A stretch of DNA of 64,000 nt from a phage, in the sequence record PZ445454.1. The stretch is one strand, 5' to 3'. A model generated the notes under the pieces. That model did not search any database. It was not told the origin of the DNA and saw nothing but the letters and a program-made list of their open reading frames with translations. The position numbers were made by a program, and so were the translations under genes. Below are positions 8,730 to 59,710 of this stretch, in pieces. Position 1 is the first letter of the stretch, and the number at the start of each line of letters is the position of its first letter.

Positions 8730-10082
8730 ATGTGGAATCCAATTGTTAATGTAGATATTACATTGAACACCGCAGGAACTACAAGAGAAGGTTTTGGTTT
8801 GCCACTATTCTTAGCTTCAACAGATAACTTTGAAGAAAGAGTGCGTGGTTACACTTCCTTAACTGAAGTTGCTGAAGATTTCGATGAGAATACTGCTGCA
8901 TATAAGGCTGCTAAACAACTTTGGAGTCAGACTCCTAAAGTAACTCAGCTTTATATCGGTAGACGCGCTATGCAGTACACTGTATCAATTCCTAATGCTG
9001 TTACTGAAAGTACAGATTACTCAATTACTGTAGCTGCTGGCGGTGGAATTTCTCAACCATATCAGTATACAGCGCAAGCTGAAGACACTGCTGAAAACGT
9101 GTTGCAACAGTTTAAAACACAGATTGAAGCTGACCCAACAATCAAAGATAAGGTTTCTGTGAATGTAACTGGTAGCAATGGCTCTGCCACAATGATTATT
9201 ACCAAAGCTGGTGATAATGACTTTGTGAAAGTAACAACCACAGCACAGACTGTATATATTGCAAGTACAACTGCTGATACAGCATCAACTGCTCTGGCAG
9301 CTATCGAAGCTTACTCTACCGACTGGTATTTCATTGCAGCAGAAGACAGAACTCAACAGTTTGTCTTAGCAATGGCTTCTGAGATTCAGGCTCGTAAGAA
9401 AATCTTCTTTACAGCTAACTCCGATGTAACAGCCCTACAAGGTACAGAGTTAGCCAGTGCAAATGATGTTCCAGCACAGCTTGCTAAGAATATGTACACT
9501 CGTACAGTTTGCTTGTGGCATCACGCAGCAGCAGAAGATTATCCAGAGATGGCATACATTGCTTATGGTGCTCCATATGATGCAGGTTCAATTGCTTGGG
9601 GTAATGCTCAGCTAACTGGTGTAGCAGCTTCTCTACAACCATCTAATCAGAGACCTCTGACAAGTATTCAGAAGTCTGCTTTAGATGTACGTCACTGTAA
9701 CTTTATTGACCTTGATGGTGGTGTTCCAGTGGTTCGTAGAGGGATTACTTCTGGTGGGGAATGGATTGATATCGTCCGTGGTGTTGACTGGTTAGAATCA
9801 GACCTGAAAACTTCTCTGAGAGACTTGCTAATTAACCAGAAGGGTGGTAAGATTACTTATGATGATACTGGTATTACCCGTATTCGTCAAGTCATTGAAA
9901 CCTCTCTGCAAAGAGCAGTCAACAGAAACTTCCTGTCATCTTACACAGTTAATGTTCCTAAAGCCTCTCAAGTTGCTTTAGCAGACAAGAAAGCGCGTAT
10001 CCTGAAAGACGTTACCTTCGCAGGTATCTTAGCAGGGGCTATCTTGGATGTTGACTTGAAAGGTACAGTGGCTTACGAATAA
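8730..10082 (+). CDS. putative tail sheath protein
   Basis: 450-aa ORF in the canonical sheath-tube-chaperone-tape measure order; no motif confirmed. Confidence 0.45.
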   Translation: MWNPIVNVDITLNTAGTTREGFGLPLFLASTDNFEERVRGYTSLTEVAEDFDENTAAYKAAKQLWSQTPKVTQLYIGRRAMQYTVSIPNAVTESTDYSITVAAGGGISQPYQYTAQAEDTAENVLQQFKTQIEADPTIKDKVSVNVTGSNGSATMIITKAGDNDFVKVTTTAQTVYIASTTADTASTALAAIEAYSTDWYFIAAEDRTQQFVLAMASEIQARKKIFFTANSDVTALQGTELASANDVPAQLAKNMYTRTVCLWHHAAAEDYPEMAYIAYGAPYDAGSIAWGNAQLTGVAASLQPSNQRPLTSIQKSALDVRHCNFIDLDGGVPVVRRGITSGGEWIDIVRGVDWLESDLKTSLRDLLINQKGGKITYDDTGITRIRQVIETSLQRAVNRNFLSSYTVNVPKASQVALADKKARILKDVTFAGILAGAILDVDLKGTVAYE

Positions 10083-10097
10083 TAGAGGTAAATTGGA

Positions 10098-10544
10098 ATG
10101 GCTATGTATCAGCAATATTCCCCTAAAGACGTTGTATGTAGCTGGAACGGCATTGCTATTGAAGGCTTTGCTCCAGACTCATTCTTGCGTCTACAGAGAA
10201 CATCACCACTTGTGACACCAGTTGTTGGTGCAGGTGGTCAGGTTGCTCTGACACGAAATGCAGACAAGACAGGTACTATTGAGATTGAGCTAATGCAGAC
10301 TTCTCTCTCTAACCAGATGCTTTCTGCAATTCAAGCTAAACAAGACAATATGGAACTTGAAGAAGATATCTCTTCTAACTTCGTAATCTACGACCCATCA
10401 GGCTCTGTTCTGGCAACTGGTATTAACGCTTGGTTGCAGGAGTTACCACAGATTGAACTTGGTCGTGACCAGAACTCTAAAACTTGGATTTTTGGTTGTG
10501 AGAAGTTAGACTACACTTCTACAATTCCAGCGTCAAGTGTTTAA
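10098..10544 (+). CDS. putative tail tube protein
   Basis: 148-aa ORF after putative sheath, followed by strong terminator. Confidence 0.45.
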   Translation: MAMYQQYSPKDVVCSWNGIAIEGFAPDSFLRLQRTSPLVTPVVGAGGQVALTRNADKTGTIEIELMQTSLSNQMLSAIQAKQDNMELEEDISSNFVIYDPSGSVLATGINAWLQELPQIELGRDQNSKTWIFGCEKLDYTSTIPASSV

Positions 10545-10554
10545 TAAATCCTAT

Positions 10555-10590
10555 AAGGGGGAGACTTTAAAAGGTCTTCCCCTTTTTTGT
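10555..10590 (+). terminator. rho-independent terminator
   Basis: hairpin gggggagac/gtcttcccc followed by TTTTTTGTTTC. Confidence 0.6.
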
Positions 10591-10617
10591 TTCTTTTAAA
10601 AGTATTAAGGAATCACA

Positions 10618-11016
10618 ATGAAAACAGAATCTAGAGTAATTAATGGTAAGAAAGTAAATATCGTTCTGCTTGGGGCAAGAGATGGTATTAAAATGTCTAT
10701 GAAGTTGGGTAAAATTGTTGTTCCAACTTTTGCACAGATGCTGTCAAGTCTGACTGACAAGGGTAAGAAGGAGGCTCCGATGGTTCCATTTAAAGAACTT
10801 GTTGAAGCTTGTTTTGACAGAATTGAAGAAATTAACCTTGAAGAGATGGCAACCCTGTTATTTCAAGGGGCAACTGTTGACGACTTCCCACTTAATATTG
10901 ATACGTACTTCCAAGCAAACTACGGTGAGTTCATTGATTACTTAGCATTTGCGCTGGAGGCAAACTTCGGAAGTTTTTTCGAAGCAAGCATTTTCAAAAG
11001 CCTAACTTCTCAGTAA
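10618..11016 (+). CDS. tail assembly chaperone (G-like)
   Basis: 132-aa ORF immediately upstream of tape measure gene; contains slippery site near 3' end. Confidence 0.5.
   Translation: MKTESRVINGKKVNIVLLGARDGIKMSMKLGKIVVPTFAQMLSSLTDKGKKEAPMVPFKELVEACFDRIEEINLEEMATLLFQGATVDDFPLNIDTYFQANYGEFIDYLAFALEANFGSFFEASIFKSLTSQ
10974..10980 (+). other. candidate -1 programmed ribosomal frameshift slippery heptamer T_TTT_TTC
   Basis: X_XXY_YYZ heptamer in frame of 10618..11016; -1 frame is open from here through ORF 11019..11258. Confidence 0.5.
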
Positions 11017-11018
11017 AC

Positions 11019-11257
11019 ATGGGTAACACTCTACAGACACCACTAACTGATGCTGCTGTAGAGGCAACCTATGAAGAAGCAGACGAGATGAAATTTGTGC
11101 TTGCTATTTATGGTATGGAAGGGTGTAAAGAAACACTTGACCAACTCTTTGCTATGACATTCTCTGATTTATTATCATTGAGACAATTTCTTGAAATTCA
11201 GAGGTCGTATAAAGAGGAAATTGCTTACAACGAACTTAGAAGAGCAGGAAAAATGTA

Positions 11258-11258
<1 letters not shown>
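11019..11258 (+). CDS. tail assembly chaperone frameshift extension (GT-like C-terminal part)
   Basis: 79-aa ORF in -1 frame relative to preceding chaperone ORF; open upstream back to the slippery site. Confidence 0.45.
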
Positions 11259-19274
<8,016 letters not shown>

Positions 19275-44848: not shown

Positions 44849-45918
44849 TTAACCAGCACCCAATCTTTTTAGGTGGTGAGAGAAAGACGTTTGACTCTCT
44901 TAATAAACACTACCCAAAAATCTTTGAACTTTATAAACAACAAAAGGCACAAGACTGGTCAGAAGATGAGTTCCCTTTTGAACAATCACGTCTTGATTTT
45001 GAGAGTGTTCCAGCATCAATGTCAGGTGTAATGCTTGAGATTCTTAAGTGGCAGTGGGAAGCAGATACTCAAGTCGCTAAAAGTTTAGCGTTTGCCTTTG
45101 CACCATTCATCTCTGATGACATCTATGCGACTGCAATTATGAAGCAGTCTGAGATTGAAAACCTACATGCTCTTACTTACTCAGAGATTGTAAGGCAATG
45201 TATTAAAAACCCTGAAACAATCTTAGATGAGATTAACCAGAATGTTGCTGTACAAGACCGATTAAAAACTGTGAATCGTGTTCTTGAAGAATTACTGGAT
45301 GAAGGTATAAACTATCGCCTGAGTTATGTGCGTGACTCACTTCTGGACAAAGACCCTTTACACTTCCATAAAGTGATTCTGAAAGGGCTGTTTGCAGTGA
45401 CTGCACTTGAAGGTATATCTTTTATGGCATCCTTTGCATGTACTTTTGCACTTGATGCTCAAGATAAATTTCAGGGTATTGCTCAAGCTGTCCAGAAAAT
45501 TATGCTTGATGAAATCCTTCACACTAAAATTGATATTGAAGTTTTAAAAGAAACTTTAAGAGATGATGAGTGGCAGAAAGCTTTTCAACAAATTCTTCCA
45601 GAGATTAAAGTAATCTTAGATGAAGTAGTTGAAAGTGAAGAGAAATGGTCGTATTATATCTTCTCCGAAGGACGTGCTGTAGTTGGCTTAAATACAAAGC
45701 TTCTTCATGAGTGGGTTTACTATAATGCTGCCCCACTGTATGATATGTTTGGCATTCCCAGAGATTTTGTAGCTCCTAAAGAACCACCTTTGAAGTACAT
45801 GATTAAGAAGATGGAAATTGATAAAGAGCAGAATGCTAATCAGGAGCAACAGAACGGTGCGTACCTATTGAATACTGTTGTAGATGATTTGAATAGTGGA
45901 TTTTTAGAGGTTCCTTAA
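44845..45918 (+). CDS. nrdB: ribonucleotide reductase class I small subunit
   Basis: start at MINQHP with RBS AAAGGAG; ferritin-like iron-ligand motifs (e.g. LDEILHT); track ORF extends to 44785. Confidence 0.7.
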   Translation: MINQHPIFLGGERKTFDSLNKHYPKIFELYKQQKAQDWSEDEFPFEQSRLDFESVPASMSGVMLEILKWQWEADTQVAKSLAFAFAPFISDDIYATAIMKQSEIENLHALTYSEIVRQCIKNPETILDEINQNVAVQDRLKTVNRVLEELLDEGINYRLSYVRDSLLDKDPLHFHKVILKGLFAVTALEGISFMASFACTFALDAQDKFQGIAQAVQKIMLDEILHTKIDIEVLKETLRDDEWQKAFQQILPEIKVILDEVVESEEKWSYYIFSEGRAVVGLNTKLLHEWVYYNAAPLYDMFGIPRDFVAPKEPPLKYMIKKMEIDKEQNANQEQQNGAYLLNTVVDDLNSGFLEVP

Positions 45919-46160
45919 TGACTTATGTAATTTACTCCAAAACTGGATGCCCTCAATGTGAGACTGCAAAGAATTTTGCAAAAGCTCGTGGTATTGAACA
46001 TGTTGTGAGAATGTTAGGGCAGGATTATGAGCTATCAGACCTGATGGATATTGCACAGATGCCAGTTCGTCAGATGCCATTCATCATGAAAACTGATGGG
46101 CAAAACCTAAAGCCTGTTGGAACGCTACAGAATTTTATGGCAGAGGTGAATAATGCTTAA
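45918..46160 (+). CDS. nrdH: glutaredoxin-like protein NrdH
   Basis: 80 aa; redox motif CPQC near N-terminus; coupled to nrdB. Confidence 0.65.
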   Translation: MTYVIYSKTGCPQCETAKNFAKARGIEHVVRMLGQDYELSDLMDIAQMPVRQMPFIMKTDGQNLKPVGTLQNFMAEVNNA

Positions 46161-46359
46161 ACGCCTTTGGGAAGGTTTGGTTGTTGATGCACCAGCTATT
46201 GTGATTGGTATGCTTATTGTTAACCTATTTACTGACTTTGAACAAGGTTCATTGTTTGGAGCTATGTTACTATGGGTTATCTTCGAAATATTAGAGATAC
46301 AGTTAGGTATCACTGAAAAACTAAGAGAACTCTTTGCGAAGTTTTCTAAAAAGATTTAA
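46153..46359 (+). CDS. small membrane protein
   Basis: 68 aa; hydrophobic segments AIVIGMLIVNLF and GAMLLWVIFEIL. Confidence 0.4.
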   Translation: MLKRLWEGLVVDAPAIVIGMLIVNLFTDFEQGSLFGAMLLWVIFEILEIQLGITEKLRELFAKFSKKI

Positions 46360-53450: not shown

Positions 53451-55232
53451 ATGACTAAATCACTTTACGCAGTACCAGCAGGTTTAAATGCAGATGCTTA
53501 CAAATCTGGTCATGTTTACCAGTACCCTAGTGCAACAGAATACTTGATGTTCAACCTGACACCACGTAGTGATAAATGGTTTAACAGCCCCTTAGCAATT
53601 GATGGTGTAGTGGCTTTTGGTATTCAGCGTTTTGTTAAAGATTACTTGATAGACCACTGGAACGCAACTTTCTTTGAGCGTGATAAAAAAGAAGCAATTG
53701 ACGAAATCTTAGAAGTCATGAATGGTGTTCTGGGTAAAGATGCTATCGGTCGAGAGCATTGGGAAGCACTTCACGACTTAGGCTATCTACCAGTTGAAGT
53801 ATATGCTGTAGAAGAAGGTACAGTTGTCCCTATGCGTGTCCCAATGATTGTCTTCCAGAACACTGTTTCAGGCTTCCATTGGGTAGCAGGTTATCTGGAA
53901 GATGCTTTCTCTGCTGAGATTTGGAAGGCTTGTACCATTGCAACTATTGCATTGCACTACAAACGCATCTGTAAGAAGTGGGCTGACCTTACTTGCGACA
54001 ATGACTTACATTTACCTTATCAGTGCCATGACTTTGCTATGCGTGGTATGTCCGGCTTTACTGATGACGCATTTAACGCTGTAGGCCACTTAACCAGCTT
54101 TAAAGGAACTGATAGCTTCCCTGCTGTGTATACGGCTAAACGAATATATGGACAGTCTTACCCAATCTCTGATATTGGTAGTTCTGTACCAGCCACTGAG
54201 CACTCTGTAATGTGTGCAAACATTGCTTGGGAAGGTGGTAATGAGTTGATTGAAGAAGAAAGACGCTTTAAAGGTGAGTTGCAAACCTTCCGTCGTTTCT
54301 TAACAGAAACTTACCCAACTGGTATTGCAAGTATTGTTTCAGATACTTATAACTTCTGGAGAACCGTGTCAGAAATCTTGCCAGCACTTCGTAAAGAAAT
54401 TATGGAACGTGATGGTAAGCTGGTAATTCGCCCTGACTCTGGAGACCCTGTACATATTGTCACAGGTTATAAAGCAATCCACTTAGAGTGTGCTAAGAAG
54501 GCTTATTACGAGCATCTAAGCAAGCTGGAAGCTAGTGACACAATGTTGGATGCTGTTCTGAACATGAAGCTTGAAAACATCAGCTATGGTATTGCTGGAT
54601 GGCTACTATCAGAAGGCTACGAAATGGTTGTTGACAGAGAAGACTTTGAAGTTGCTGATACAGTGATGTTGAAAAATGCTTATATGGTTGGTTCTGCAAA
54701 CGTTGTAACACGTCCTGTAGCTGAGATTGATGGAGCTATTAAGACACTGTACAACATCTTTGGAGGAACTACTAACTCTAAAGGGTTTAAGGTGCTGGAT
54801 GAGCATATCGGCCTTATCTATGGTGACTCTATCACGCTGGAACGTGCAAACGAAATCCTGAAGCGTCTGTATGAAATGGGTTTTGCAAGCTCTAACGTAG
54901 TGTTTGGTGTAGGCTCTTACACTTACCAGTACATGACTCGTGATACCTTTGCATTTGCTGTCAAAGCAACCCTTGCAAGCATTGGTGGTAAAGAGATTAT
55001 GCTTGCAAAAGACCCTAAAACAGATAGTGGTGTTAAGAAGTCTGCCTTTGGTGGTGTATCACCTATGTGGGATGGTGATAAGCTGAAAGCTGTAGATGGC
55101 TATGGATTCCAGAGTTTTGCAGATGTACTTGACCACCCAGCTTGTGCTTTACGTTTAGTCTTTAGTGACTCTGAGCAGTTCGGTTACACAACTCTTGGTG
55201 ATATTCGAAACAATATTGACAAGCAGCTTTAA
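53451..55232 (+). CDS. nadV: nicotinamide phosphoribosyltransferase-like protein (NadV/Nampt family)
   Basis: 593 aa; N-terminal LYAVPAGLNADAYKSGHVYQYP typical of Nampt/NadV; RBS AGAGAG. Confidence 0.65.
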   Translation: MTKSLYAVPAGLNADAYKSGHVYQYPSATEYLMFNLTPRSDKWFNSPLAIDGVVAFGIQRFVKDYLIDHWNATFFERDKKEAIDEILEVMNGVLGKDAIGREHWEALHDLGYLPVEVYAVEEGTVVPMRVPMIVFQNTVSGFHWVAGYLEDAFSAEIWKACTIATIALHYKRICKKWADLTCDNDLHLPYQCHDFAMRGMSGFTDDAFNAVGHLTSFKGTDSFPAVYTAKRIYGQSYPISDIGSSVPATEHSVMCANIAWEGGNELIEEERRFKGELQTFRRFLTETYPTGIASIVSDTYNFWRTVSEILPALRKEIMERDGKLVIRPDSGDPVHIVTGYKAIHLECAKKAYYEHLSKLEASDTMLDAVLNMKLENISYGIAGWLLSEGYEMVVDREDFEVADTVMLKNAYMVGSANVVTRPVAEIDGAIKTLYNIFGGTTNSKGFKVLDEHIGLIYGDSITLERANEILKRLYEMGFASSNVVFGVGSYTYQYMTRDTFAFAVKATLASIGGKEIMLAKDPKTDSGVKKSAFGGVSPMWDGDKLKAVDGYGFQSFADVLDHPACALRLVFSDSEQFGYTTLGDIRNNIDKQL

Positions 55233-55246
55233 AAGTATATGATAAG

Positions 55247-55268
55247 AGGCTCCTACGGGAGCCTTTTT
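55247..55268 (+). terminator. rho-independent terminator (UACG loop)
   Basis: aggctcc-tacg-ggagcct then TTTTT. Confidence 0.65.
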
Positions 55269-55285: not shown

Positions 55286-55630
55286 ATGGATAACCTTTCT
55301 ATATGGTTCAATAAGGAACCTGTACAACCTAAATACTTACAAGTTGCCTATACAGACATCCTTGAAGTTCTCGGTAAAGAAAAGTTTGAAAAGTTCTGTG
55401 AAGGTATCTATAATCACCACTGTCAGTTTGCTACGAAAGAGGGTATGTTTGTCATAGAACAGTTCTTTGGCAGAGACCCAGATGACTATGAAGAGATTAG
55501 CTTTGTAATGAAATACATGATAGAGTATATTGAGAATCGTGGATTCGAAGTTAATCCTGAATTTTATGAACATGAGGGTGTACCTTTAGCAAAAGGTTTT
55601 GACGGTATACTTGTTAACTGGACTTGGTAA
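55286..55630 (+). CDS. hypothetical protein
   Basis: 114-aa ORF. Confidence 0.4.
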   Translation: MDNLSIWFNKEPVQPKYLQVAYTDILEVLGKEKFEKFCEGIYNHHCQFATKEGMFVIEQFFGRDPDDYEEISFVMKYMIEYIENRGFEVNPEFYEHEGVPLAKGFDGILVNWTW

Positions 55631-55971
55631 AAGCTATGAAAATCAAAGAGATGAACATCAACGTTGTCCTAGAAGAACGTTGGGAGAATATTAAGAAACC
55701 CGAAGATGGTAAAAAGTTTCTTAACAAAATTTTAGTAGCAGCTAAAGAAGAACTGACTGGTAAGGTTGCAGCAGCAATCACAATAAAAGTCTGTGTAAAA
55801 GGTCTTCCACAACATCACCAATTTGCTCTTGATGAGTTTAAAGAAAACTTCTACAATCCAAACAAACAGATGCTTGAAAGTAACTTTGCAGTGTCTACAA
55901 GTATCGTCCATGACAGAAGTTTTATCCTTTACAAAAATATGAGAGGTGAGCCATGCAAGCATATTGGATAG
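55624..55971 (+). CDS. hypothetical protein
   Basis: 115-aa ORF. Confidence 0.4.
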   Translation: MVKAMKIKEMNINVVLEERWENIKKPEDGKKFLNKILVAAKEELTGKVAAAITIKVCVKGLPQHHQFALDEFKENFYNPNKQMLESNFAVSTSIVHDRSFILYKNMRGEPCKHIG

Positions 55972-56129
55972 AAATTTTACTGTCACTTGGTAGTGTAGCA
56001 GTATTTGTTTACCTTCTTTGCAAGTACTATGCAGAGCACAAGAAGTGTGACTACTGTAACGGAGAAGGGTATACAAGAGCAGGTTGTTGCCCTATGTGTG
56101 GCGGTTCTGGTAAAATGTTTAATAAGTAA
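55953..56129 (+). CDS. membrane-anchored mini-protein with DnaJ-type zinc finger (58 aa)
   Basis: N-terminal hydrophobic helix WIEILLSLGSVAVFVYLL followed by two CxxCxGxG repeats (CDYCNGEG, CPMCGGSG); below ORF-track cutoff. Confidence 0.4.
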   Translation: MQAYWIEILLSLGSVAVFVYLLCKYYAEHKKCDYCNGEGYTRAGCCPMCGGSGKMFNK

Positions 56130-56157
56130 TTTAACAGTAAACTAAGAGGAAAGTATT

Positions 56158-58524
56158 ATGCGCATGGTAAATGACCACGCAGAAGTGATTAAGAGTTCAA
56201 CTTCTTTGGAGACATCTCAAGCTCAGATTACAATGACACCTGAAATGTTCAGTCTTCTGAGTTCTGGTGTATATACCTTTAAAGAGAGGGCAGTGATTCG
56301 TGAACTGTCATGTAATGCAGTAGATGCTCAGAAAGAAGCTGGAAAAGAGAATATCCCGTTCCATGTGCATTTACCTACTCGTTTTGAGCCTTACTTTGAA
56401 GTCCGTGATTTTGGAACTGGATTGACTCATGATAAAGTTATGAGTTTGTATCTGAACTACGGGGCTTCTACGAAGAATGACTCTAATGATTACATTGGCG
56501 CAATGGGTATCGGCTCAAAATCCCCATTTGCAATTGCTCAGTCATTCACAGTATCTAGTTATGTTGATGGTGTTGTTAATAAGTACTCTGTTTACCTTGA
56601 GAATGGTATCCCTCAAGTAACTAAGCTTACTACTAACCCAACAAATGAACCCAATGGTTTAGCTGTACGTGTAGCAGTTGCTGACCACCGTATTTCAAAG
56701 TTCTTTGAAGAGGCTGGTCACGTATATTCATACTTTGCTGTAAAACCAGAAAGCAATATTGTATATGATGATGTGTTAGCAGATATGAACGTCATTGCCC
56801 GTGAAGAGGGTGTTTATGATGCTATGATTCATAAGCAAAGTTGGCGTTCTAGTGGTAACAGGACAGAGTTTAATGTGGTGATGGGTAACATTGCCTACCC
56901 TGTTAACATGGAAGCATTACTTGGTGATGATTTCTTCAAAGTCTTGCCAGAGTTTTTCCGTAGGAGTGTAGACCTTGTAAACATCTACATGCCTATTGGT
57001 TCAGTTGCTATAGCAGCTTCTCGTGAAGCATTGCAGATGAATGATACGACAAAAAATGTTATCATTGAGGCTACTAAAAAGATAACTGAAGCAATTACAA
57101 AGGATGTTATCAAGAAAGTTAATAGTCAACCTACACTCATGGATGCTGCACAGGCTTATGCTGAGTTACGTTTGAACTCACGAGAGATGTTTAATGCTGT
57201 GTGTCCGAAGCTGGAGTGGGGTGGCGTTAAGCTTGATTCTCTGGAAGAAGAATTACTAAACATTCGTCGTGGGATTATCTACGCAGAAGACGGCTCAGTC
57301 ATTTATGAACGTGACGGCAAAGGTAATATTAAGGTTGACAGTAAAGGAAACAACATTCCTAAAGTGGACTACCTATACAATCCAGTTGCTTATGTCAAGT
57401 TCAACTCTTTAGAGAGTAAGATTCGTGCAACAGCACTTTCCTACACTCAAGAGGCAAGTATGTTCAATATCTTTGGTGCAATGCGTAAAAGCCAAATTGA
57501 ACAGTTTTTGTTCGTGATTAATGACCGTCGCAATAAAAACGGAACTGAGAAGACTGTAGGACGCAATCAAATCTTGCGTGGTGCATGTCGAGACTACGCC
57601 AATGAGTCAAGTCTGTTTCACAGATACAATGGTATTGTGTTTGTTTTCTCGACTGAAAAAGAGCTAGATGACTTAATCAACCTACACAAACTTGATAAAA
57701 GCTTGTTAAAGATTGTGAAGATGTCTGATAAGGAACATCACTATCAGCGTAAAGAAGCTGTGAGGGGTGTTGTAAAACTCTGGAAAGCTGTTCCAGCAGA
57801 AGGTGTAGCTTCCTATAAAGAGGTTTCAGAGGACTTTGATACAATTGAAGAACCTCAGCTTTACATTAAGGCAGTTGGTGACACAGTTGATGGCGAATGT
57901 TTTTGCTCATCTCCAGAAGATGTAGCTAAGTCAGTCGCTAATGTTATAGGGAAGACAGTCTATGTTTTCCGAAAAGCAAATTGGAAAAAGATACCAGAAG
58001 ACTGGATTGAAGTAGATGAGAAACTATTGAATGACAGCCTAACTGATGTTCACTGGATTAATCATAACAGGTATATGACACGTATCTATATGAATGGTGT
58101 CCTTGACCTTACAAGTAGTTGGATTATTGCCAGAAACTTTACGTTTAATAACAAGAAGATTTCTCGCGGGTATTGCTATTCACGAGATACATACAAAACC
58201 ATCTTCTTAGAAGGTAATGAGAATGCTGTTGAGGCAATGTTTGGTAAGATTCAGTATGTGGCTGCACCGTTTGCATACACTTACACTATCAGTGTTCTTC
58301 AGGATTTGAAGTCATGCCTTGACAATGATACAAAACTGTACAAAAAGATTAAGAAAGCGGGTGACCGCATGGTTATCAAACTGACAAACTACCTTTCAAA
58401 AAGAAAACAAGAAAACTTCTTGCTTTCCCATTTAGATTGGAATAAAGTGTCACCCATCGAAGTGAGTAAGTTCTTAGGCTTTGATGTGAAGTGTGTTCCA
58501 GAAGGGACTACAATTTACGATTAA
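56158..58524 (+). CDS. rIIA: rIIA-like protein (GHKL/HATPase_c N-terminal domain)
   Basis: Bergerat-fold boxes: N box RELSCNAVDA, G1 box VRDFGTGL, G2 box GAMGIGSKSPF; 788 aa; followed by rIIB-like gene. Confidence 0.65.
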   Translation: MRMVNDHAEVIKSSTSLETSQAQITMTPEMFSLLSSGVYTFKERAVIRELSCNAVDAQKEAGKENIPFHVHLPTRFEPYFEVRDFGTGLTHDKVMSLYLNYGASTKNDSNDYIGAMGIGSKSPFAIAQSFTVSSYVDGVVNKYSVYLENGIPQVTKLTTNPTNEPNGLAVRVAVADHRISKFFEEAGHVYSYFAVKPESNIVYDDVLADMNVIAREEGVYDAMIHKQSWRSSGNRTEFNVVMGNIAYPVNMEALLGDDFFKVLPEFFRRSVDLVNIYMPIGSVAIAASREALQMNDTTKNVIIEATKKITEAITKDVIKKVNSQPTLMDAAQAYAELRLNSREMFNAVCPKLEWGGVKLDSLEEELLNIRRGIIYAEDGSVIYERDGKGNIKVDSKGNNIPKVDYLYNPVAYVKFNSLESKIRATALSYTQEASMFNIFGAMRKSQIEQFLFVINDRRNKNGTEKTVGRNQILRGACRDYANESSLFHRYNGIVFVFSTEKELDDLINLHKLDKSLLKIVKMSDKEHHYQRKEAVRGVVKLWKAVPAEGVASYKEVSEDFDTIEEPQLYIKAVGDTVDGECFCSSPEDVAKSVANVIGKTVYVFRKANWKKIPEDWIEVDEKLLNDSLTDVHWINHNRYMTRIYMNGVLDLTSSWIIARNFTFNNKKISRGYCYSRDTYKTIFLEGNENAVEAMFGKIQYVAAPFAYTYTISVLQDLKSCLDNDTKLYKKIKKAGDRMVIKLTNYLSKRKQENFLLSHLDWNKVSPIEVSKFLGFDVKCVPEGTTIYD

Positions 58525-58603: not shown

Positions 58604-59710
58604 ATGACTACTAAAACTAAAGCACAGATTGACGCAGAAATTTACGAACTGGTTAAAGAAGGTAAGCTGACTAAAACAGCTATTGCACAGAAGTTCAATA
58701 CTTCAACCCGTTCAGTTGGTCGTGCTGTAGAGCGTCATGAAGCAACCTTAAAAGGTAAGAAAAAGGTAGCTTCTAAACCAGCTACGAAGACTTTGAAGCA
58801 AGTTGCTAAATCAGTTAAAAAGAAAGCTGACAAGCCAGTTAAAAAGGCTGTTAAAGAGCCTGTACAGAAAGCTCCGGTAAATAAACTGCATGAAGCTATG
58901 CAGAATGGTAACCAGATTGAGTATATGATTACTGGCGATTCTGTTATCATGACTTTCGGTGCAGATTCTGAAATCGTTGAATCTACCCATCCGAACTACA
59001 AAGAAATTGTGATGGCTGTTGTATCCGGTGAGTATAAGAAAGCTTTCGAACTGATGAACATTCGTAAGTCTATCGAAAACTTCACTCAGGGTGCTATCAC
59101 CATCAAAGGTGATAAGCTATTCTATGGTGCTGTTGAGATGCGTTCTACTCTGGTTGACCGTATTCTTCACATGATGAAGACTGGTGATAAAGGTTTTGAA
59201 CGACTTGTAATGTTCTTCGAAAAACTGATGGAAAACCCATCTAAAGGTTCTGTAGAACAACTGTGGGGATTCATATCTCACCTTGATGTTGAAATTGATG
59301 AAGAAGGCTACATTATCGGTTGGAAAAAGGTACAAAGTAAAGCTGACGGTTCTCTGGTAGACAGCCACACCCATAAAGTACCTAATGACTTAGGTAACCT
59401 AGTTGAGATGCCTCGTTGGATGGTTGATAGTGACCCTAACCGCACTTGCTCTCAGGGTTTACATGTTGGTGCATGGGAATACGTATCATGTTTTGGAGGT
59501 GATACCATCCTGAAAGTTCGTGTCCACCCACGAGATGTTGTATCTGTTCCGATTGATTACAACGATATGAAGATGCGTGTATCAGCTTATGAGTCTTTTG
59601 CGATTGTTGACAGCAACCGTAAAGTTATCAAGACTCACTCTGGCTCTGGTGGTCATCGTGTAGTAATTGGTTCTCACGGCGAGTTAATCTCCAAGACACC
59701 ACGCGTTTAA
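58604..59710 (+). CDS. rIIB: rIIB-like protein
   Basis: 368 aa immediately after rIIA-like gene; strong RBS AGAGAG; C-terminal KVRVHPRDVVSVPIDYNDMKMR segment. Confidence 0.55.
   Translation: MTTKTKAQIDAEIYELVKEGKLTKTAIAQKFNTSTRSVGRAVERHEATLKGKKKVASKPATKTLKQVAKSVKKKADKPVKKAVKEPVQKAPVNKLHEAMQNGNQIEYMITGDSVIMTFGADSEIVESTHPNYKEIVMAVVSGEYKKAFELMNIRKSIENFTQGAITIKGDKLFYGAVEMRSTLVDRILHMMKTGDKGFERLVMFFEKLMENPSKGSVEQLWGFISHLDVEIDEEGYIIGWKKVQSKADGSLVDSHTHKVPNDLGNLVEMPRWMVDSDPNRTCSQGLHVGAWEYVSCFGGDTILKVRVHPRDVVSVPIDYNDMKMRVSAYESFAIVDSNRKVIKTHSGSGGHRVVIGSHGELISKTPRV

Follow-up and report, generated by a model that had tools for sequence, protein, structure and literature searches.

A short open reading frame upstream of rIIA

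The DNA analysed here is a 64,000-nucleotide stretch of phage sequence (record PZ445454.1, one strand, 5' to 3'), which is called the window throughout, and the element under study is a short open reading frame (ORF) at positions 55953-56129 on its plus strand, just 5' of rIIA. The ORF begins with an ATG at 55953, ends with a TAA at 56127-56129 and specifies a protein of 58 amino acids (aa), MQAYWIEILLSLGSVAVFVYLLCKYYAEHKKCDYCNGEGYTRAGCCPMCGGSGKMFNK. The initial annotation, made from the letters of the window, had placed at exactly these coordinates a 58-residue protein with an ATG that overlaps the preceding gene, and had described it as a hydrophobic helix followed by the motifs CDYCNGEG and CPMCGGSG. 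Both descriptions were confirmed, the overlap being 19 nt long, the helix covering residues 5-23 and the two motifs extending from C32 to G39 and from C46 to G53. The surrounding region is 93-96% identical at the DNA level to many Felix O1-like phages (Felixounavirus, Ounavirinae), for example 96.4% to vB_Eco_Tribble (hereafter Tribble). The features of the gene itself are the following:

55943..55949, plus strand: Shine-Dalgarno motif GAGGTGA, read directly, 3 nt before the ATG
55953..56129, plus strand: coding sequence of the 58-aa protein with its stop (small membrane zinc-knuckle protein of the Felix O1 p243 type, PHROG 3931), based on the ORF listing and the sequence, the PHROG match and selection
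55953..55971, plus strand: 19-nt overlap of the start of the gene with the 3' end of the preceding PHROG 4262 gene (about 55636-55971)
55965..56021, plus strand: predicted transmembrane helix, residues 5-23, WIEILLSLGSVAVFVYLLC (Kyte-Doolittle)
56022..56045, plus strand: juxtamembrane linker KYYAEHKK, basic and aromatic, residues 24-31, on which the topology call is based
56046..56069, plus strand: first CxxCxGxG motif, CDYCNGEG (C32, C35, G37, G39), invariant in alignments
56088..56111, plus strand: second CxxCxGxG motif, CPMCGGSG (C46, C49, G51, G53), with C45 just before it, invariant in alignments
Peptides of the 58-aa protein: CDYCNGEGYTR and AGCCPMCGGSGK

The 19-nt overlap probably leads to translational coupling with the PHROG 4262 gene. 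SUSP1, Mordin, Silverhawkium, EcSzw-2 and Sf14 have an overlap of the same length in their annotations. The ribosome-binding site of the gene is strong.

Evidence for a gene under purifying selection

ORF 55953-56129 is a genuine gene under purifying selection. It was compared with 37 Ounavirinae copies from public phage and viral-contig collections, and in all 37 it is intact and has an ATG start with a GAGG/GGAG motif before it. Outside the overlap, at codons 8-58, the ratio of nonsynonymous to synonymous polymorphism (pN/pS) is 0.088 within Felixounavirus, and the median pairwise ratio of nonsynonymous to synonymous substitution rates (dN/dS) is 0.13 within Mooglevirus/Suspvirus. The variable sites are distributed over codon positions 1, 2 and 3 as 6/5/30, and codons 1-7 have no synonymous difference at all within Felixounavirus. 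When the 64-kb window is translated in six frames, no CxxCxGxG motif other than CDYCNGEG and CPMCGGSG is present, and block shuffles of the window contained a mean of 0.22 such motifs and never two in one open frame. The initial annotation had held that a lack of conservation would speak against a gene; the intact copies and the selection statistics clearly demonstrate the opposite.

It should be noted that the ORF is short (58 aa) and is overlapped by open frames on both strands, which might suggest that it is open by chance and is not a gene. The comparative data refute this suggestion, and virtually no probability remains for it: pN/pS is as low as 0.09 (rounded), the changes follow the 6/5/30 pattern, the gene is conserved in six genera and the competing frames contain stops in relatives. 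On the minus strand, a 114-aa ORF at 55732-56076, which overlaps both this gene and its upstream neighbour, was considered as a true gene and rejected, since it is open only in the window, is interrupted by stops in 22 of 23 distinct Felixounavirus relatives and is thus a chance ORF. All frames other than that of the gene are interrupted by stops in the Mooglevirus/Suspvirus copies.

A 46-aa ORF in the +2 frame (56005-56145), which is open in 19 of the 23 relatives, was likewise rejected; it is entered by frameshifted database alleles and has no independent support. Four 63-aa database proteins start like the 58-aa protein and then shift to the +2 frame, each at a point of its own; in phiWec177 the shift results from a 1-nt deletion in a GGGG run (at about position 56090 of the window). 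These alleles may be homopolymer sequencing errors or natural null alleles. A search of the literature for Felixounavirus transcriptomics or proteomics (ribosome profiling, proteomics) with direct evidence for translation of the ORF found none, one of the searches being loosely phrased.

Protein architecture and predicted topology

The best 19-residue Kyte-Doolittle window of the protein coincides with residues 5-23 (mean 2.11), and an equivalent hydrophobic segment is present in all homologues. Across 14 homologues, with identities down to 25%, the residues M1, C32, C35, G37, G39, C46, C49, G51 and G53 are invariant; the initial annotation had named conservation of the CxxCxGxG pair in relatives as a check, and its outcome is positive. 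E7 is nearly invariant as well, but it lies inside the dual-coding overlap; position 45 is mostly Cys, with Pro in its place in some members. The second motif is followed by 5 more residues, with which the protein ends. An AlphaFold2 model built from an eight-sequence alignment had a mean predicted local distance difference test (pLDDT) score of 80, with a helix at residues 3-28 (pLDDT about 74-88) that is followed immediately by short beta elements around both knuckles. The four conserved cysteines in two knuckles would be expected to form one Zn(Cys)4 centre per chain.

The protein has no Lys or Arg before the helix, whereas K24, K30 and K31 follow it, and in most lineages the hydrophobic segment is likewise preceded by none and directly followed by one to three (KYR in phiEa21-4, KK-K in RB49). 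According to the positive-inside rule, positive charges only on the C-terminal side indicate a short periplasmic N-terminus and a cytoplasmic tail, and thus we predict from the charge distribution an N-out/C-in orientation with a cytoplasmic zinc-binding tail.

The opposite orientation, N-in/C-out, would place a disulfide-bonded Cys-rich tail in the periplasm, where it could serve superinfection exclusion or the timing of lysis, as other small membrane proteins of phages do. It would be in line with the many CxxCxGxG-repeat proteins with signal peptides that were found in a representative protein search (see below), with the homologue of Pectobacterium phage Arno162, whose sole flanking positive charge is N-terminal, and with the annotation of the neighbouring genes as "lysis inhibitors". 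Nevertheless, we consider this orientation improbable, because in the members from Felixounavirus, Mooglevirus, Kolesnikvirus and Krischvirus Lys and Arg are absent before the helix and present directly after it, neither the n-region nor the cleavage motif of a signal peptide is present, and the fold and sequence matches are cytoplasmic zinc domains. A CxxCxGxG motif would also be atypical for a holin or a spanin, and in the gene list of Bas63, a Felixounavirus, the holin, endolysin and spanin are annotated at other genes (10.1101/2024.10.10.617714). A cysimiditide-type Zn-tetracysteine precursor of a peptide made by ribosomes and modified after translation (RiPP) was also considered; there is no modifying enzyme adjacent to the ORF.

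A catalogued and apparently phage-specific family

The initial annotation had described the protein as unannotated. It did fall below the 60-aa cutoff that was used there, but public records hold the identical protein, AAQ14745.1/NP_945023.1 of Felix O1, a "hypothetical membrane protein" with 100% identity, and many relatives have the gene annotated, as a hypothetical or membrane protein in Tribble, TP1, SUSP1, Mordin, Silverhawkium, Sf14 and others. The exact sequence is present on 147 contigs, and clustering at 90% identity places it in a group of 262 members. Close relatives form a UniRef cluster that bears the name "Heat shock protein", evidently owing to the similarity to DnaJ. The profile of PHROG 3931, a family without an assigned function, matches the protein over its full length (E 9.2e-34, residues 1-58 against profile positions 1-59), and it also matches RB49p046 (E 4.4e-10). 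With tblastn, the gene was found in 274 phage records, about 214 of which are Felixounavirus at >=90% identity and about 60 of which are below 60% identity.

Five genera share the order NAMPT, zero to two small genes, the gene, rIIA. In Felixounavirus, Mooglevirus and Suspvirus the gene has the 19-nt overlap with a PHROG 4262 gene; in Kolesnikvirus the homologue, gp117 of phiEa21-4, closes a genome whose record begins at rIIA; and in Arnovirus (phage Arno162) the gene is located directly 3' of NAMPT, without a PHROG 4262 gene in between. A distant branch is present in RB49-like T4-type phages (Krischvirus), where RB49p046 and its relatives (52-58 aa) are located far from rII. The similarity to RB49p046 is already recorded in the phiEa21-4 annotation. 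The tblastn matches included no record of the T4 genus, and T4 rIIA.1, which was considered as a counterpart, is an unrelated, Cys-free soluble protein of 67 aa.

A scan of cellular genomes, in which each of 185,579 species of bacteria and archaea was represented by one genome, detected neither a prophage copy nor a small homologue that combines a transmembrane helix with a zinc finger. All 67 confirmed cellular matches are of the DnaJ zinc-finger type and confined to the region of the motifs, and 54 belong to bona fide DnaJ proteins, which have an HPD motif. Thus, the family of membrane zinc-knuckle proteins looks phage-specific. A search of 1.84 billion representative proteins recovered only about ten clusters with the full short architecture, together with hundreds of longer proteins that contain multiple CxxCxGxG repeats, some of them behind signal peptides or N-terminal anchors. 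The 58-aa protein had no match among the PADLOC families of defence systems. No paper on a phage protein that combines a membrane anchor with a single DnaJ-type knuckle was found in the literature; genome papers mention soluble two-motif phage proteins in passing. The gene is catalogued but uncharacterised; in these lytic enterobacterial phages it encodes a DnaJ/Anti-TRAP-type knuckle that has no J domain and is joined to a transmembrane anchor.

In each of the three Krischvirus lineages that were examined, the homologue has an 11-nt overlap with the end of the nrdH glutaredoxin gene, stop included, and it precedes 55.2. This location, together with two CxxC pairs and an extra, usually conserved C45, would suit a redox-active thiol-disulfide protein, possibly tied to glutaredoxin and ribonucleotide reductase, and among the plant DnaJ-like zinc-finger proteins LQY1 and CYO1 are credited with disulfide-isomerase activity. 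Such a function has only a small chance of being correct, in our view: the Ounavirinae gene is about 10 kb away from the glutaredoxin gene, the 3' neighbour of which is an unrelated Cys-free membrane protein, the CxxCxGxG sites of DnaJ and Anti-TRAP are structural zinc sites, and C45 is replaced by Pro in some members.

In the window, the glutaredoxin gene (45918-46160) is followed, with an overlap of 8 nt, by the gene for this 68-aa Cys-free membrane protein (46153-46359), which was considered as a paralogue by analogy with RB49 and found to be unrelated. The glutaredoxin-coupled slot is thus held by two unrelated small membrane proteins, the 68-aa protein in the window and the zinc-knuckle homologue in RB49.

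Kinship of the zinc knuckle

The initial annotation had read the two motifs as a DnaJ-type zinc finger, and as a structural reading this is borne out by the invariant cysteines and glycines in the 14 homologues, the single helix, the match to the Cys-rich domain of E. coli DnaJ (1exk, E 7e-9) and the weak fold matches to Anti-TRAP and DnaJ. On its own, the 58-aa protein has only sub-threshold matches in Pfam, the best being DUF5351 (E 0.0024); the match to DnaJ_CXXCXGXG (PF00684; E 0.02, 15.6 bits against a gathering threshold of 32.7) covers only model positions 37-65, the second half, and a protein with two motifs can span only half of this model. Sub-threshold matches to the same model were obtained with 13 of the 14 family members (best E 5.8e-5), and 5 of the 14, the 58-aa protein not among them, match Anti-TRAP (PF15777; best E 2.8e-4, all below the 32-bit threshold). 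Two family members out of 14 also matched the Pfam model Gad1 (Gabija anti-defense 1) weakly, with an E value of 0.0064 at best; these matches are regarded as Cys-motif noise.

When the family profile was compared with the sequences of the Protein Data Bank, the DnaJ domain 1exk, either half of which is matched by the two-motif unit, was followed by 2ctt of DnaJA3 (E 3e-5) and 6jzb (E 9e-4). The matches to Anti-TRAP had E values of 0.03-0.06, and residues 31-54 align without gaps to residues 11-34 of Anti-TRAP, so that the spacing of the cysteines, C-x2-C-x10-C-x2-C, is identical. In structural comparisons of the AlphaFold model, Anti-TRAP and DnaJ Cys-rich domains rank best, with DnaJA2, DnaJ, DnaJA3 and BSD2 among those listed; the absolute scores are weak, which is not surprising for a stretch of about 30 residues, but the ranking is coherent.

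The kinship with DnaJ does not extend to its co-chaperone function. The 58-aa protein has no HPD motif and no match to a J domain in Pfam or NCBIfam (TIGR02349 scored 17.6 bits against a cutoff of 377), and without a J domain it is not a DnaJ co-chaperone. The initial annotation had suggested interference with host chaperones or the membrane; a membrane-bound, DnaJ-derived knuckle might accordingly interfere with host DnaK/DnaJ, as a decoy that captures DnaK or the clients of DnaJ, and both the sequence of the knuckle, which is closest to bona fide DnaJ Cys-rich domains, and the name "Heat shock protein" of one UniRef cluster would fit such a decoy. We nevertheless rate it as quite unlikely: in addition to the missing J domain and HPD motif, only half of the DnaJ zinc module is present, an isolated knuckle is not known to bind DnaK, and Anti-TRAP, BSD2 and FIP, a plant protein discussed below, use this motif for partners that are unrelated to one another.

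Genomic neighbourhood

The gene lies within a non-structural region, between NAD-salvage genes and rIIA/rIIB, with the following neighbours, listed from 5' to 3':

Upstream of 53451: ribose-phosphate pyrophosphokinase gene
53451-55232: nicotinamide phosphoribosyltransferase (NAMPT) gene
55244..55267, plus strand: terminator-like hairpin 3' of NAMPT, at the start of the unit with two small genes, ORF 55953-56129 and rIIA
55286-55630: small gene, PHROG 20372
About 55636-55971: small gene, PHROG 4262
56158..58524, plus strand: rIIA, the downstream neighbour (listed as context, a functional partnership is not implied), with matches of its N-terminus to GHKL/HSP90-like ATPases
58604-59710: rIIB

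The hairpin at the end of NAMPT is annotated as a terminator in Tribble, Mordin and phiEa21-4. A sigma-70-like, near-consensus promoter (TTGACA-16-TATGAT, 11 of 12 matches; in the region 55216-55267) ends exactly where the 10-bp-stem hairpin begins, just 3' of the NAMPT stop, and a second promoter-like site, again with 11 of 12 matches, is found inside the next gene at 55386-55414.

The N-terminal about 130 residues of RIIA match models of GHKL/HSP90-type ATPases (NCBIfam HSP90 family, E 2.9e-11; sacsin ATP-binding domain, E 4.8e-7; Pfam HATPase_c, weak). A gene for an HSP90-like ATPase thus adjoins one for a DnaJ-type zinc knuckle.

An HNH endonuclease gene is located between the pyrophosphokinase and NAMPT genes in SUSP1, Arno162 and a metagenomic Suspvirus-like contig and is absent there in Tribble, which marks it as a mobile insertion polymorphism. 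At 8833-11719 of Tribble (equivalent to about 46.2-49.1 kb in the window), the anaerobic ribonucleotide reductase is annotated as two coding sequences split by an HNH endonuclease gene, which suggests an intron or a homing-endonuclease insertion.

Laboratory fitness and the relation to rII

Two published screens contain information about homologues. In the supplement of a transcriptome-wide CRISPRi-ART screen, the SUSP1 homologue AVU07_agp080 (listed with PHROG 3931 and Felix01p243) is classified as "Not Fit", which means that its knock-down did not impair infection of laboratory E. coli (PMC11879866). The PhageMaP knock-out library of Bas63 includes gene 83 (g83), a "putative membrane protein" (10.1101/2024.10.10.617714), which is located, after NAMPT (g80) and two hypothetical genes, before the two "membrane integrity protector" genes g84 and g85 (rIIA/B). 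Its fitness was mostly above 0 on laboratory hosts and on the defence strains in that part of the supplementary sheets that was consulted (10.1101/2024.10.10.617714). Taken together, these results indicate that the homologues are dispensable in the laboratory. The frameshifted alleles in deposited phage genomes (see above) also speak for an accessory gene.

The position just 5' of rIIA, to which the initial annotation had drawn attention, is correct, but the functional link that it implied is weakened by these data. In principle, the protein could be an accessory subunit of the rIIA/rIIB module, or the anchor that holds this module at the membrane, and it would then be expressed together with rIIA and required for the rII-type protection from defence systems that act on the membrane. 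In Felixounavirus, Mooglevirus and Suspvirus the gene is immediately 5' of rIIA within one terminator-bounded unit, in the records of Kolesnikvirus and Arnovirus it comes last, after NAMPT, which fits the convention of opening genomes at rIIA, and RIIA and RIIB are annotated as membrane-integrity proteins in related records. However, on a QatABCD strain the fitness of Bas63 g83 knock-outs was +0.77/+0.66/+0.81, while that of g84 and g85 knock-outs collapsed to -1.26/-1.30/-1.61 and -1.05/-2.46/-2.45, respectively, and the authors named only g84 and g85 as counters of QatABCD, and g79/g80, the pyrophosphokinase (PRS) and NAMPT genes, as counters of Sir2-HerA (10.1101/2024.10.10.617714). In addition, the Krischvirus homologue is located 3' of nrdH, far from rII, T4 rIIA.1 is unrelated, and the T4 genus is missing from the tblastn matches. 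A role as an rII subunit therefore has poor prospects, and the small membrane protein, represented in Bas63 by g83 on the basis of synteny, is not an obligatory part of the rII function that was tested.

In the window, the NAMPT gene and the ribose-phosphate pyrophosphokinase gene upstream of it form the NAD-salvage pair that corresponds to Bas63 g79/g80; the Sir2-HerA defence depletes NAD (10.1101/2024.10.10.617714).

Proposed role

The explanation that we favour, with a somewhat better than even chance of being correct, is that the accessory gene encodes a bitopic inner-membrane protein, N-out/C-in, that carries a cytoplasmic Zn(Cys)4 knuckle and acts as a membrane-tethered binding module for a host or phage partner. 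About four residues would remain outside the membrane, one helix (residues 5-23) would cross it, and a tail of 35 residues would start at its cytoplasmic surface. The knuckles C32/C35 and C46/C49 would form a pair of beta-hairpins, which most likely share one tetrahedral zinc ion, as in Anti-TRAP and in each zinc centre of DnaJ. Because the protein lacks a J domain and is too small for catalysis, a protein-binding module is the most likely function, and by analogy it might serve as a tethered adaptor, decoy or inhibitor that holds or blocks its partner on the cytoplasmic side of the membrane in the course of infection.

Several points weigh against this explanation. The topology call rests on few charges and is ambiguous for the Arno162 homologue, where K4 precedes the helix and SEHE follows it, and many CxxCxGxG-repeat proteins with classical signal peptides in the 1.84-billion search reveal that the motif also occurs outside the cytoplasm. 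Searches found no experimental evidence of translation, zinc binding, topology or a partner for the 58-aa protein, a "binding module" is a generic mechanism drawn from analogy, and Bas63 g83 was taken as a homologue from its position in the gene order and its product name.

The gene adjoins two modules that counter immunity in Bas63, namely PRS/NAMPT against Sir2-HerA and rIIA/B against QatABCD. Strong purifying selection in combination with laboratory dispensability is the signature of an accessory gene for host range or counter-defence, and, together with the site between the two counter-defence modules, it fits a conditional role in host takeover or counter-defence, which is suggested here from association with the neighbouring genes.

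A more specific possibility, which we regard as rather unlikely, is that the protein is the founding member of a class of phage-specific, membrane-tethered Anti-TRAP-like knuckles, which would dock on and modulate a host inner-membrane machine during takeover, or would disarm a membrane-associated defence that is absent from laboratory strains. Two analogies, plant FIP and the DnaJ-like zinc-finger subunit that is present in chloroplast Ycf2-FtsHi complexes, would make FtsH the obvious candidate for the machine. If this were true, it would explain why strong purifying selection in nature is found side by side with dispensability in the laboratory.

At present, the gene encodes a real, correctly spotted and already catalogued hypothetical protein. 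Felix O1-type phages are widely used for typing and biocontrol of Salmonella and E. coli, and most of their small early-region genes are uncharacterised. The identification of a partner would add a minimal membrane-tethered zinc module of about 35 residues to the host-manipulation devices of phages and would provide a counterpart in the bacterial world of the plant proteins that consist of an anchor and a knuckle.

Comparison with known systems

The nearest relatives are RB49p046 and phiEa21-4 gp117, true homologues, which have lengths of 52-55 aa, a transmembrane helix and the two CxxCxGxG motifs. The RB49 copy differs in its location, which is 3' of nrdH and not 5' of rIIA, and neither of the two has an assigned function.

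For the soluble part of the protein, the best relative in sequence is the Cys-rich domain of DnaJ (1exk, PF00684). In DnaJ, four motifs form two zinc centres, which are located between the J domain with the G/F region and the C-terminal client-binding domains, whereas the phage protein has two motifs, no J domain and a membrane anchor.

In size, spacing of the cysteines and rank among the fold matches, it is Anti-TRAP (RtpA of Bacillus; 2bx9/3lcz/3ld0) that the phage protein resembles. To our knowledge, enterobacteria have no TRAP, and thus the target of the phage protein must differ. Anti-TRAP is soluble and has a C-terminal helix that builds trimers and dodecamers, whereas the helix of the phage protein is N-terminal, hydrophobic and, as predicted, transmembrane. 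Anti-TRAP has 53 residues with two CxxCxGxG motifs, requires zinc for oligomerisation and function, and acts by binding TRAP (PMC2896485).

The closest architectural analogue in the literature is the plant protein FIP (At5g02160), in which a hydrophobic anchor is followed by a C-terminal C4 finger of two CxxCxGxG motifs, predicted to be stromal, and which binds FtsH5 (PMC5915565). The two proteins, compared here by description only, have the layout of an anchor plus a knuckle in common; FIP differs in being encoded by a eukaryotic nuclear gene, in having a transit peptide and in being reported only in mosses and higher plants. The role proposed here would parallel both systems, that of Anti-TRAP, in which the same minimal zinc domain blocks TRAP, and that of FIP, in which the same layout is used to bind FtsH5.

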